Shown here in pieces: positions 2,843-18,433 of a DNA stretch of 60,513 nt. The stretch is taken from assembly GCA_963788655.1 (NCBI GenBank), contig CAWBHS010000104.1, positions 1-60,513 on the forward strand, given 5' to 3'. A program made the translations under genes and the position numbers. The stretch comes from an uncultured Verrucomicrobiae bacterium. GTDB taxonomy: Bacteria; Verrucomicrobiota; Verrucomicrobiia; Limisphaerales; JAFGQR01. A model generated the notes under the pieces. The model worked only from the letters and a program-made list of their open reading frames with translations, ran no database searches and was not told the DNA's origin. Position 1 is the stretch's first letter. Each line of letters starts with the position of its first letter.

Positions 2843-2896
2843 GGATTGCGGATTGCGGACCTTCCATTGCGGAATGCGGATTGCGGATTGCGGATT
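2843..2896. repeat. Heptamer tandem array (ATTGCGG/AATGCGG), downstream arm of four-helix-bundle cassette 1
   Basis: Six units in register from 2845 to 2893, with one in-register 7-nt variant ACCTTCC (2859-2865). It is the reverse complement of the array at 3323-3371. Confidence 0.95.
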
Positions 2897-2898
2897 CG

Positions 2899-3252
2899 TT
2901 ACGGGCGACGGCGGGTTGTGTTGATGGACGCGACGGTGATGGCGACCAATTCGTCCGCTTCCTTCAGCAAGAGATCCAACTTGCGTTGTTTCACCAGCCC
3001 GGCATCCACCAGAAGTTCCATCCAGTAGCTGGTTTCGTCGGCTTCTTCCTCCACCGTGCCCATTTTGGAGATAAAGTCGGCGTTCGATTTAGCCCGGCAG
3101 GCAGCGCGGTAGTTGGCCCCAACCGATGTACCCGCCCGCAGCAGTTGCCGGCCCAGCACCCGGCCCGTTTGGGTCGCGGGTATCGTTTCCACCAGTTTGA
3201 TGATTCGCAAGGCGAAGGCCTTCGTTCGTTGTTTCATTTGGTTCGCATCCAT
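2899..3252 (-). CDS. Four helix bundle protein (23S rRNA IVP / TIGR02436-like), 117 aa
   Basis: MDANQMKQRTKAFALRIIKL...QLLRAGTSVGANYRAACRAKSNADFISKMGTVEEEADETSYWMELL. AGGA lies upstream of ATG 3252. The longer ORF-track start reads through the repeat array. Confidence 0.92.
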   Translation of the reverse strand: MDANQMKQRTKAFALRIIKLVETIPATQTGRVLGRQLLRAGTSVGANYRAACRAKSNADFISKMGTVEEEADETSYWMELLVDAGLVKQRKLDLLLKEADELVAITVASINTTRRRP

Positions 3253-3322
3253 ACGTGTCCTGATTCTCTGAGTTTCAACGTTAGTTTGGCGTCCTGTGGA
3301 TGGACGCGTCCGAATTCTGAAC

Positions 3323-3371
3323 CCGCAATCCGCATTCCGCATTCCGCAATCCGCATTCCGCATTCCGCAAT
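3323..3371. repeat. Heptamer tandem array (CCGCAAT/CCGCATT x7), upstream arm of cassette 1
   Basis: Seven contiguous units in the order AAT,ATT,ATT,AAT,ATT,ATT,AAT (21-nt super-period). The array abuts the stop codon of the upstream kinase. Confidence 0.95.
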
Positions 3372-16720: not shown

Positions 16721-17626
16721 ATGGCCACTCCCGACCCCAACCAACTCCTCGATCCCGTCGCCATCGCCCGCGCCGAATCGCTCGGATTGAACGCGCGTTA
16801 CATTGTTGAGGGTTATATGGCGGGCGAGCACAAATCGCCTTACCGCGGGTTTGCCATCGAGTTCGCCCAGCATCGCGAATACACGCACGGTGACGATACC
16901 CGCCATCTCGACTGGAAAGTCCTTGGCCGCACCGACCGTTATTACATCAAACAATACGAGCAGGAAACCAATTACGTTGCCCACCTCCTGCTCGACGGCA
17001 GCGAGTCGATGAAATACGGCTCCGGCAAGCTGACCAAGCTGCACTACGGCAAAATGATGGCGGCCTGCCTGGCCTACCTCATTCTTCATCAGCGCGATGC
17101 CGTGGCCCTCGGTTTGTTCGACACCGCAGTACGCGATTACACGCCGCGCAGCGACAACATCGCCACCATCCACCACCTGATGTCCAAGCTGGCCGCGTTC
17201 GATCCGCAGGCGCAAACCGACATCAGCACGGTGCTGCACGACATGGCGCATCAAATCCGCCGCAAAGGCATTGTCATCGTAATCAGCGATTTCTTCGACG
17301 ACGAACAAAAGGTGCTCGACGGCATTCAACACCTGCGGTTTGGCGGCAATGAGGTCATCGTGTTCCATGTCATGGATCCCTACGAACTGGAGTTTCCGTT
17401 CCTGGGCTTGGTGGAATTTGACGGGTTGGAAGGCATTCCCAAAATCCTGACCCGCCCCAGTGAAATCCGTAAAAGCTACCTGCGCGAGGTCGAAGCGTTC
17501 CGGTTGCGCTTGCGGGAAGGTTGCGAGAAAAACCACTGCCATTACGTCCTGGTCAACACCGCGCAACCGTTGCCCGAGGTGCTGAGCGGGTATTTGGCGT
17601 TTCGCCGGCGAACCACGACGCGATGA
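16721..17626 (+). CDS. DUF58 domain protein
   Basis: GEHKSPYRGFAIEFAQHREYTHGDDTRHLDWK, LLLDGSESM, ISDFFD. Follows the MoxR gene. Confidence 0.92.
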   Translation: MATPDPNQLLDPVAIARAESLGLNARYIVEGYMAGEHKSPYRGFAIEFAQHREYTHGDDTRHLDWKVLGRTDRYYIKQYEQETNYVAHLLLDGSESMKYGSGKLTKLHYGKMMAACLAYLILHQRDAVALGLFDTAVRDYTPRSDNIATIHHLMSKLAAFDPQAQTDISTVLHDMAHQIRRKGIVIVISDFFDDEQKVLDGIQHLRFGGNEVIVFHVMDPYELEFPFLGLVEFDGLEGIPKILTRPSEIRKSYLREVEAFRLRLREGCEKNHCHYVLVNTAQPLPEVLSGYLAFRRRTTTR

Positions 17627-17633
17627 GGAAAGG

Positions 17634-17701
17634 AATGACCAATGACCAATGACCAATGACGCAATGACCAGAGAATGCCCAGGAGGCAATGACCAATGAC
17701 C
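17634..17701. repeat. Heptamer array (AATGACC)n, upstream arm of four-helix-bundle cassette 2
   Basis: AATGACC x3, AATGACG-C, AATGACC, AGAG, AATGCCC, AGGAGGC, AATGACC x2. Starts 7 nt after the DUF58 stop. Confidence 0.93.
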
Positions 17702-18188
17702 GAACATTCGGCAGCAGTCAGCGGTAGTGAGTCGTGGGAGAATGAGAAGGTGAAGGACGCTTATCCTGAATCTTCGGGGTTCTTTTTCGAGCTTCGGGAA
17801 CAGGGAACGGAGCTTCCAGGGAGGAACTGTTTTAGGACCGGCACCGTTTGATCTTGAGGAACGGACGGCGAAGTTTGGAGAAGCCGTCATCCAGTTCGCC
17901 AAGAAGCTGCGTCCTGTACCAGCTAACAATCGCATTATCGACCAATTAGTCGGCTGCGGGACGAGTATAGGTGCCAATTACTGTGAAGCAGACGAAGCGG
18001 TTTCTAAAAAGGAATTTCTGAACAAGATCGGCACCTGCAAGAAAGAAGCCAAGGAAACCAAATTCTTCCTGCGAATGTCCGCCATTGCGGAACCCGAACT
18101 GAAAGCTGAAGCTCGCCGACTCTGGCGTGAAGCCAAAGAACTGCACCTCATCTTCGCCGCCATCTTCCGTAAAGGACGGGGGAAATGA
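17696..18188 (+). CDS. Four helix bundle protein (23S rRNA IVP family), one apparent frameshift near 17820; missed by ORF track
   Basis: Manual translation: PFDLEERTAKFGEAVIQFAKKL...DQLVGCGTSIGANYCEADEAVSKKEFLNKIGTCKKEAKETKFFLRM...EAKELHLIFAAIFRKGRGK*. AGGAGG lies 9 nt before ATG 17696, whose frame needs a 1-nt correction to join the domain. Confidence 0.85.
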
Positions 18189-18433
18189 CCAATGAACCAA
18201 GGCCCAAGTAATGACCAAGCAATGAGCACCCAGAGTTTAGAGATGCATGTTTTAAAGTCGCGTGCCGCGCGTCAGTCAGCGCCGCTAACTGGAACTTGGC
18301 GCTTTCGACCTTGGTCGTTCTGCGGTTATTGGCCATTGAACACTTATCGTTCGTCACCCCTTGGTTCCCGATCCTTCATTGGTCATTGGCACTTGTTCAT
18401 TCTCCGGTCATTGGTCGTTGGTCATTGGTCATT
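18184..18433. repeat. Downstream repeat region of cassette 2: AATGACC-like units (18184-18227), then inverted GGTCATT-like units (18313-18337, 18374-18433)
   Basis: GGTCATT, GGTCGTT, GGCCATT and GTTCATT units. The block 18374-18433 mirrors the upstream arm, including a 4-nt spacer (CTCC versus AGAG). Confidence 0.9.

Follow-up and report, generated by a model that had tools for sequence, protein, structure and literature searches.

Four-helix-bundle genes enclosed by complementary heptamer arrays: intervening-sequence-type cassettes between operon genes of an uncultured Verrucomicrobiae bacterium

The S23p family of proteins (PF05635, TIGR02436) has solved structures but, to our knowledge, no known function, and it has reportedly also been treated as a cas-associated domain. 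Here we describe two members of this family, P1 and P2, whose genes lie in a 60,513-nt stretch of DNA from an uncultured Verrucomicrobiae bacterium (contig CAWBHS010000104.1 of assembly GCA_963788655.1; the whole stretch is called the window). Each gene is enclosed by two complementary arrays of 7-nt tandem units, the arms, and gene and arms together are called element 1 (P1, AATGCGG-type units) and element 2 (P2, AATGACC-type units). In the literature searched, the family is otherwise described only as the uncharacterised open reading frame (ORF) of rRNA intervening sequences (IVSs) (PMC4990558; bioRxiv 10.1101/2024.02.27.582315) and as Avd-like proteins (PMC10053308). The 23S rRNA IVSs of Coxiella burnetii and Leptospira carry a PF05635-family ORF in a loop closed by terminal inverted repeats, with heptameric direct repeats just upstream of the ORF, and are regarded as selfish elements; in the Coxiella IVS, where the heptamers precede the S23p ORF, the stem of 28 bp is cut by RNase III (PMC4990558). 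The window elements resemble these IVSs, but they lie between protein-coding operon genes, with no match to any Rfam family, rRNA included, in positions 1-21000; their arms consist wholly of 4-8 or more heptamers, their units diverge together with the ORF, and gene-less copies of the hairpin occur in the same genome. We conclude that the window elements are real IVS-type cassettes outside rRNA, whose arms co-evolve with the gene.

Several other systems are alike in part. TRAP is a ring of 11 identical subunits, each of which binds one triplet unit of a tandem RNA repeat; its fold is unrelated, and the likeness is one of working only, in that arms most often of 4-5 units would suit a pentamer. 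The short tandemly repeated repetitive (STRR) sequences of cyanobacteria consist of 7-nt tandem units in intergenic DNA, and STRR2 (TTGGTCA) is a rotation of the unit TCATTGG of the window; no link of STRR heptamers to a gene family was found in the literature searched. Repetitive extragenic palindromes with their transposases (REP/REPIN-RAYT; PMC3116915) and miniature inverted-repeat transposable elements (MITEs) likewise place many short intergenic hairpins beside rare gene-bearing copies, whereas the window elements have arms of tandem heptamers and a four-helix-bundle gene alone in the loop, with no Y1 or other transposase. Avd, a protein of diversity-generating retroelements (DGRs), has the four-helix-bundle fold in common with P1 (structures 4DWL and 8UB7, template-modelling (TM) score 0.74-0.78 to the P1 model), with a sequence identity of 12-14%. 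Avd itself is a pentamer holding an RNA stem-loop: in the DGR ribonucleoprotein, a single stem-loop is touched by every one of its five protomers, flipped-out bases being gripped by equivalent residues of different protomers (bioRxiv 10.1101/2023.10.23.563531). Unlike in a DGR, no reverse transcriptase (RT) was found among the 27 ORFs of positions 1-21933, no search aimed at a template/variable repeat pair being made. A paper on TAACTGA repeats (PMC4679880) does not mention the family. In the literature searched (supplements excluded), we found no heptamer-armed cassettes between protein genes and no co-divergence of unit and gene, the Coxiella IVS aside. An earlier note on this DNA had suggested an undescribed system, and this holds within that literature, except for the heptamers inside the Coxiella rRNA IVS.

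The same note had pointed to two divergent paralogues with the motif GTS[V/I]GANY, and the profile searches bear this out. Both proteins contain the motif and, over 110 aa, share 32% of their residues; each matches PF05635 (P1, E 9.1e-19, 68.1 bits; P2, E 2.4e-09, 37.8 bits; cut-off 33.8) and TIGR02436 (P1, E 1.3e-27, 96.2 bits; P2, E 5.8e-16, 58.7 bits; cut-off 24). They are basic (isoelectric point 9.7 for P1 and 9.5 for P2, with a family median of 9.0), and the residues that are invariant in their alignment (R9, T10, Q36, S43, A46, Y48, S56, E70 and E73) are constant across clades with differing repeat units. P1 also matches PDB entry 2RLD (E 5.4e-20), and its AlphaFold2 (AF2) model (mean predicted local distance difference test (pLDDT) score 96.8) has helices at residues 3-23, 28-52, 57-83 and 89-115. 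Foldseek aligned this model with 2RLD (TM 0.83-0.87), 2GSC (0.78-0.85), Avd 4DWL (0.74) and the Avd chains of the DGR ribonucleoprotein 8UB7 (0.78). The S23p-family structures 2RLD (BT_0352) and 2GSC (Xcc0516) thus have their fold in common with the P1 model, and we know of no function or ligand for either protein. Both entries contain five chains, Avd is a pentamer, and a Xanthomonas S23p-family protein is described as a homopentamer (PMC4990558), in line with the homopentameric fold that had been attributed to the family.

Element 1 lies among kinase genes, with a histidine-kinase frame before it and a hybrid response-regulator/kinase gene after it, both likewise on the minus strand, and element 2 lies in a MoxR/Bat operon on the plus strand, with DUF58 upstream and BatA downstream (Pfam; Table 1). 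Both are operon-internal and co-oriented with their neighbours, as had been noted, and the reported absence of transposase, integrase and RT families nearby was confirmed by Pfam for the 27 ORFs of 1-21933. The two elements were also said to use differing heptamers in complementary arms, and the arrays called by Tandem Repeats Finder (TRF) are indeed inverted at 83-96%: 54 nt at 83% and 27 nt at 96% in element 1, and 38 nt at 84% and 27 nt at 96% in element 2. Sense-strand RNA folds are closed by a stem of the paired arms in both element 1 (-224.1 kcal/mol, z -4.93, none of 100 shuffles as good) and element 2 (-309.1 kcal/mol, z -6.15, none of 20 shuffles as good). The first 5'-arm unit of element 1 overlaps the stop (3371-3373) of the upstream histidine-kinase frame (ending ...HVELPL), and a gap of 4 nt separates its 3' arm from the ATG (2838) of the response-regulator/kinase ORF 1609..2838. 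A perfect 21-nt super-period is an alternative TRF reading of 3323-3372, and in the 5' arm of element 2 TRF called 17634-17670 (5.1 copies of AATGACC) plus 17687-17701.

Table 1. Coordinates of the two elements and their parts in the window.
Feature	Position	Strand	Basis or detail
Element 1, 5' arm	3323-3372	-	About 7 units AATGCGG/ATTGCGG on the sense strand; TRF 3323-3369, period 7, 6.7 copies
Element 1, leader from 5' arm to ATG of the four-helix-bundle ORF	3253..3322	-	Sequence, translation
Element 1, ORF of P1, four-helix-bundle protein of 117 aa	2899..3252	-	PF05635, TIGR02436, PDB 2RLD, AF2
Element 1, 3' arm, complementary to 5' arm	2843-2896	-	TRF, period 7, 7.7 copies
Element 2, entire (847 nt), from DUF58 stop (17624-17626) to BatA start (18474)	17627..18473	+	
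Element 2, 5' arm, AATGACC units and inner motif CCAGAGAATG	17634..17701	+	TRF, sequence
Element 2, N-terminal extension frame (…SWENE…YPE…ELRE…), ATG in last AATGACC unit	17696..17851	+	Stop 17849-17851
Element 2, P2 four-helix-bundle domain frame, 120 aa as read	17826..18188	+	PF05635, TIGR02436
Element 2, sense-orientation AATGACC-like units right after P2 stop	18186..18225	+	TRF 18204-18225
Element 2, 3' arm, GGTCATT-type units, complementary to 5' arm	18376..18433	+	TRF, 8.7 copies of TCATTGG

Element 2 is an insertion at a stop/start junction. DUF58 and BatA are separated by 847 nt in the window, whereas in five orthologous loci (G401 of the same genus, G427, G419, G409 and G421; these and similar labels are our own for genomes, contigs and loci) they overlap or lie 0-46 nt apart. 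G401 has a GTGA stop/start overlap, and none of the empty junctions contains an array; in a sixth orthologous DUF58 locus (G330), a different gene lies downstream. An empty site for element 1 was sought in 30 relatives, where the downstream hybrid kinase had no orthologue, the matches being paralogous kinase domains at 59% identity or less. The DUF58/BatA junction is also filled in another genome: L151:1026-1720, 75% identical to P2 and with AATGACC arms, is inserted at the same place, its first AATGACC unit containing the DUF58 stop and the BatA GTG lying 3 nt past its last unit. The site shared by L151 and element 2 is either an old insertion lost in the others or the result of recurrent insertion. 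In the two filled junctions, [A/G]TGA stands at the left and ATG/GTG at the right, a sequence pattern that only hints at a duplication of the overlap, and we do not claim a target-site duplication. The 'direct then inverted' layout of element 2 recurs in L151; as a norm it was rejected, being found in a minority of cassettes (5/78, 4/35 and 1/50).

In relatives of P2 (L151, L152 and others), the ORF opens with an ATG inside the last of the AATGACN units; a conserved extension (…AFWGE…ELREG…) follows and leads on to the domain. In the window, the extension and the domain lie in different frames, and a search for an ATG, GTG or TTG start in the domain frame found none in frame, from which it follows that the P2 gene is frameshifted in this assembly; judging from its reading frames, it is either a pseudogene or the product of an assembly error. 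Other genes of the contig look split as well, namely the histidine kinase at 3371-4407 (minus strand, in three frames), the MoxR AAA_3 gene at 15570-16719 (plus strand) and GMP synthase at 11364-12992 (plus strand, with GATase and GMP_synt_C in separate ORFs). Taken with P2, these four split-looking genes suggest assembly indel errors or widespread decay.

The design of the two elements is repeated across this genome (8.96 Mb in 115 contigs, GC 0.596, 86% complete; the window is contig C104). All 10 TIGR02436 matches in the genome have a period-7 array at most 900 nt away, and all 9 family genes from the profile search have one within 450 nt, 5 of them on both sides; in random 320-nt segments, such an array was found on any side in 4.1% and on both sides in 0.08%. 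The cassettes of this one genome carry differing units (ACAGAGG, ACCAGTG/ACTGATC, AATGCGG, ACCGATG, AGATGGC, AATGACC and others). Two of them, at C18:3533-6729 and C97:1-489, are near-identical and have very long arrays (GATGACC x36 and x33; ACCAGTG x22), one being at a contig end; their 5' and 3' units are 1 base apart, so that the sense RNA has a mismatch (C-A) where the antisense RNA has a G-U pair.

Beyond this genome, the family was found in 276 of 401 Verrucomicrobiota genomes, with about 1048 matches. We examined a phylum set of 159 genes, made up of the 150 top-scoring of these matches in the 400 other genomes (a biased sample) and the 9 genes of the window's own genome. An array lies within 450 nt on at least one side in 120 of the 159 and on both sides in 78, of which 62 are inverted within 1 mismatch. 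Period 7 dominates the near-flank arrays (241), with period 8 next (54), and the outer flanks of the same genes contain 26 arrays in 157 kb. The 5' arm starts between -5 and +14 nt from the stop of the upstream ORF in 121/175 cassettes, while the 3' arm starts at a median of 20 nt past the cassette stop and overlaps that stop in 16/62. Both flanking genes are co-oriented with the cassette ORF in 94/150 and 74/116 cases and both opposed in 5 and 5 (p 2e-22 and 8e-17), and the downstream gene is co-oriented in 132/150 and 104/116, the strand of a flank being called crudely from its longest ORF. Because the hairpin is symmetric, this orientation bias belongs to the ORF, and the cassette ORF appears to rely on host transcription. 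For the same reason, the orientation conveyed by the earlier description of sense 5' arm units starting with AAUG has to be qualified: such units are present, but the phase of a tandem unit is arbitrary, the two strands of an inverted pair read alike, which makes a 'sense 5' arm' uninformative on orientation, and the ORF alone gives it. ATG is contained in 8 of 99 unique 5' units, with about 17 expected, and a rule that units start with AUG was rejected. So was the idea of the 5' arm as a stop-codon trap, a stop being present in 44/99 unique units against 45.3 expected. Arms of 3, 4, 5 and 6 units were counted in 26, 76, 51 and 10 cassettes on the 5' side and in 30, 103, 56 and 2 on the 3' side; the peak at 4-5 units fits a pentamer with one protomer per unit, and it fits a preferred stem of about 30 bp equally well.

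The earlier note had proposed testing whether repeat type tracks protein phylogeny, and it does. We took the 5' arm unit on the sense strand as label, compared rotation-free and counted as shared within 1 mismatch, and used for the phylum comparison the 116 of 159 cassettes, from 88 genomes, for which a label could be assigned and whose domain spanned at least 86 residues. Among pairs from different genomes, the unit was shared by 6/6 at 90% protein identity or more, 8/12 at 80-90%, 31/76 at 70-80%, 23/77 at 60-70%, 7% at 50-60%, 2.7% at 40-50% and about 1% below 40%. Altogether, 68 of 171 pairs with at least 60% identity share their unit, compared with a mean of 5.5 and a maximum of 15 in 2000 label shuffles. 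When the different-genome pairs are made disjoint, the counts are 8/11 (at least 80%), 6/15 (70-80%), 7/20 (60-70%), 6/40 (50-60%), 3/50 (40-50%) and 0/55 (30-40%). Cassettes of the same genome with less than 50% protein identity share the unit in 2/35 pairs, which is about the background of 1.9%, so the host genome does not set the unit.

Close relatives give the same picture. Eighty relatives were fetched for each of P1 (from metagenomes, 55-74% identity) and P2 (62-77% identity). The 5' units of the P1 relatives are ATTGCGG (18), AATGCGG (8), AGTGCGG (3) and one-step variants, 31 of 69 being within 1 mismatch of AATGCGG, and those of the P2 relatives are AATGAC[C/G/T] and the series AAGCTCC>AAACTCC>AAACCCC>AAATCCC/AAAACCC. 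On a tree of the P2 clade (81 proteins, 68 of them labelled; 103 columns, a quick search that leaves many forks unresolved), the unit class changes 3 times, compared with 21.8 times in shuffled labels (minimum 16, 300 shuffles), with single-base steps along AAGCTCC>AAACTCC>AAACCCC, and the window P2 groups with L151 and L152, both of AATGACC type. About 31-34 AAGCTCC-type relatives (L155 and others) sit at one conserved locus, by eye between a dihydropyrimidine/dihydroorotate-dehydrogenase-like gene and an aldehyde dehydrogenase gene, a setting that suggests long-standing vertical inheritance of one cassette, with its unit drifting in place a step at a time.

Change in one arm goes with change in the other. 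The 5' and 3' units are exact reverse complements in 22/35 cassettes of the P2 clade and 20/50 of the P1 clade, and are so within 1 mismatch in 29/35 and 41/50, and the match is mostly lost when arms are compared across cassettes with different 5' units; such compensatory change indicates that pairing is under selection. At 70-80% protein identity, the units are 0.78-0.82 identical per base versus 0.49-0.57 for random pairs, while the spacer between arm and gene is no more alike than when shuffled (0.45 vs 0.44; 0.53 vs 0.49) and identity at four-fold third positions is 0.31-0.34, compared with 0.28-0.30 in the lowest-identity bins. Four-fold sites are saturated, and the unit sequence is conserved far beyond neutral DNA; the same identity figures indicate that the protein is under purifying selection. 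In the 68 unit-sharing pairs, the flanks are unrelated on both sides in 48, homologous on both in 19 and on one side in 1, and P1 relatives occupy about 45 upstream contexts among 65 loci. Overall, gene and arms are a single evolutionary unit, moving and descending together.

Hairpins of the same kind also occur without a gene. At 3 copies or more, no tandem-repeat period is as frequent in the genome as period 7, with 396 rows and 393 arrays (AATGACC 92, AAATCCG 43, ATCCGGC 34). Among 52 inverted heptamer pairs, 41 have a gap of less than 200 nt, which leaves no room for a gene. The AATGACC class accounts for 22 pairs, 21 of them in the order AATGACC…GGTCATT, and the inner motif CCAGAGAATG/CATTCTCTGG is common to them and element 2. 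The loops of the hairpins showed no similarity to element 2 by blastn, and an origin of the hairpins as recent deletion derivatives of element 2 was rejected, the arms alone matching. Divergent genes flank proportionally few of the hairpins: 5 of the 49 whose two flanks were called, vs 923 of 4305 background spacers, by a crude gene caller. When empty sites for 3 hairpin loci were sought by DNA search in G401, G330 and G427, at most one flank matched per genome, and tblastx on two G401 hairpin loci met broken synteny. About 50 nt upstream of one gene-less hairpin, at L337:386-435 (C36:29885-29934 of the same genome), a stretch has many matches in G401 and G427 at 76-97% identity and appears from these matches to be another dispersed repeat.

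Considering these findings, we propose as the best overall explanation, and regard as probable, an insertable four-helix-bundle cassette with complementary 7-nt arrays whose protein acts on its own arms. Its cassette and hairpin parts are very likely; specific recognition of the repeat by the protein is put forward tentatively, as somewhat less than an even prospect. In this explanation, an S23p/Avd-like gene enclosed by the two arrays is inserted exactly between an operon stop and the next start as a selfish, IVS-type cassette, which would be transcribed with the host operon and in its direction. In the operon transcript, the arms would pair as a stem of 30-70 bp. RNase III, for which the genome has a gene, may cut this stem as it does in the 23S rRNA IVS of the same family, thereby freeing the cassette RNA and limiting the harm to the host operon. 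The pentameric protein would most likely act on its own arms, either as the stem or as single-stranded repeats, in RNA or in DNA. It could possibly control its own translation, or the spread or upkeep of the cassette and of the gene-less hairpin copies. Since P2-clade ORFs start inside the last arm unit, translation in that clade would be gated directly by pairing of the stem or by the bound protein.

The cognate protein-repeat system proposed earlier is partly supported: the tracking, the compensatory change, the slowly changing units and the independence of the unit from the host genome agree with it, but neither a specificity column nor a strand signal could be added to these. Over 106 columns and 84 disjoint pairs of 68-92% identity (unit unchanged in 35 and changed in 49; 259 of 319 cassettes usable), no column marked the change of unit (best p 0.0016 vs a Bonferroni limit of 0.00047), the unit-changed pairs being more diverged overall (0.213 vs 0.167). 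The sense stem is the stabler of the two in 23 cassettes and the antisense stem in 39 (p 0.08), and with stems equally stable in both senses nothing points to RNA over DNA. Besides, a cognate pair and a co-inherited hairpin under pairing selection both predict tracking, so that the tracking test, although positive, is not diagnostic, and the P2 relatives at one conserved locus (about 31) mean that vertical descent explains part of the P2 signal. These points weigh against our proposal, and so do the broken P2 frame of this assembly, the unrelated loops of the hairpins, the 39 of 159 genes with no period-7 array within 450 nt, and the distribution of the repeats. The pattern (AATGACN)x3 is present in 27 of 401 genomes, 22 of which have no P2-like protein (E<=1e-22); none of the 10 family genes in the window's genome, which is 86% complete, goes with AAATCCG (43 arrays) or ATCCGGC (34); and the complete one-contig genome G177, with 86 hits of the pattern, yielded no family gene at E<=0.01. 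Two G177 arrays that we inspected (L311, C1:2376314-2376360; L312, 2639876-2639956) are perfect single AATGACC direct arrays of 6.6 and 11.6 copies, flanked by GCGCG…CGC, and as they have no inverted partner the heptamer may serve another purpose there, such as that of a phase-variable tract. As a rival explanation, gene and arms may be only co-inherited, the arms being a structural hairpin (an RNase III excision site, an insulator or a terminator) that travels with the gene, and the protein never touching them and acting otherwise, for example as an Avd-like partner of an RT encoded elsewhere; we see this as a real possibility with roughly one chance in three. Tracking, compensatory change and slow units all follow from a pairing-selected hairpin inherited with its gene, the failure to find a specificity column and the invariance of the family residues across clades with different units agree with it, and the genome has 13 RVT_1 matches that could serve in trans. 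The authors on the Coxiella IVS moreover argue that the RNA outweighs S23p in importance (PMC4990558). A structural stem, however, needs no 7-nt units, yet 241 near-flank arrays have period 7, nor does it need a modal length of 4-5 units with a sharp drop at 6; no RT is adjacent, and the related Avd pentamer binds RNA by repeated contacts (bioRxiv 10.1101/2023.10.23.563531).

The gene-less hairpins raise the further prospect of an autonomous/non-autonomous pair, REPIN/RAYT- or MITE-like, with the cassette as master, the roughly 20 gene-less AATGACC hairpins as dependants, and the protein spreading or maintaining them. The number of inverted pairs with short gaps, their uniform arm order and the inner motif common with element 2 are in keeping with such a pair, as is G401 of the same genus, which has neither element 2 nor (AATGACN)x3 arrays. 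Arrays and P2-like protein also co-occur: the protein is found in 8 of the 401 genomes, and 5 of these 8 have the arrays, compared with 22 of the other 393 (Fisher p 4.7e-5, kin not being independent). Considering on the other side the array-bearing genomes without a P2-like protein, the large array classes of this genome without a family gene, the hairpin loops, the fact that the sole AATGACC-type gene in the genome is out of frame, and hairpin loci for which a target-site duplication was not established and at most one flank matched per relative genome, we hold this pair to be improbable. The arrays could finally be generic simple repeats made by the host, STRR-like, in which four-helix-bundle genes merely land; period 7 is indeed the commonest in the genome, and most arrays have no family gene nearby. 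The unit, though, follows the protein clade across genomes and unrelated flanks, cassettes of one genome carry different units, and the empty DUF58/BatA junctions have no array at all, so this explanation is disfavoured and we give it hardly any weight. An insertable cassette with a protein acting on its own arms is the explanation that we retain.

A few observations on the setting may be added. The 13 RVT_1 matches (C60:18937-19605 and 9 other places) include several equal-scoring ones whose open frames are 492-505 aa long; one of the matches is 6.5 kb away from the C60 cassette, and otherwise they are on other contigs. They are probably multi-copy group II intron RTs. In the window, positions 12800-13800 have a GC content of 0.48-0.51, compared with about 0.60-0.65 around them; the ORFs of this stretch (12943-13434, 13298-13690 and 13157-13453) have no Pfam match, and TRF called a 14-nt tandem repeat within it at 13724-13751. 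A 9-nt tandem array, CTTCGCGGC x15, lies at 56776-56915 (TRF score 205, with a 19-nt period as second reading), and a perfect 26-nt tandem repeat of 2.3 copies at 10418-10477, near the 5' end of an SMP-30/gluconolactonase-like gene on the minus strand.

Read most boldly, the pentamers would be sequence-specific readers of heptamer arrays, one protomer per unit, and together with their arms would form a class of transposase-free mobile cassettes that seed and maintain gene-less hairpins. We think this unlikely, at perhaps a quarter of the weight of certainty; if true, it would give a function to a large orphan family and would explain both the ORF-bearing rRNA IVSs and the long-noted excess of 7-nt tandem repeats in bacteria. 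Ready cognate and swapped substrates are at hand, with AATGCGG-type repeats for P1 and AATGACN and AAGCTCC-type repeats for the P2 clade. For a family that is common in the phylum and includes both the ORFs of rRNA IVSs and the DGR accessory protein Avd, its own arms thus provide a testable hypothesis for its target, and the co-evolving unit of gene and hairpin is a candidate origin of heptamer hairpins in bacterial genomes.

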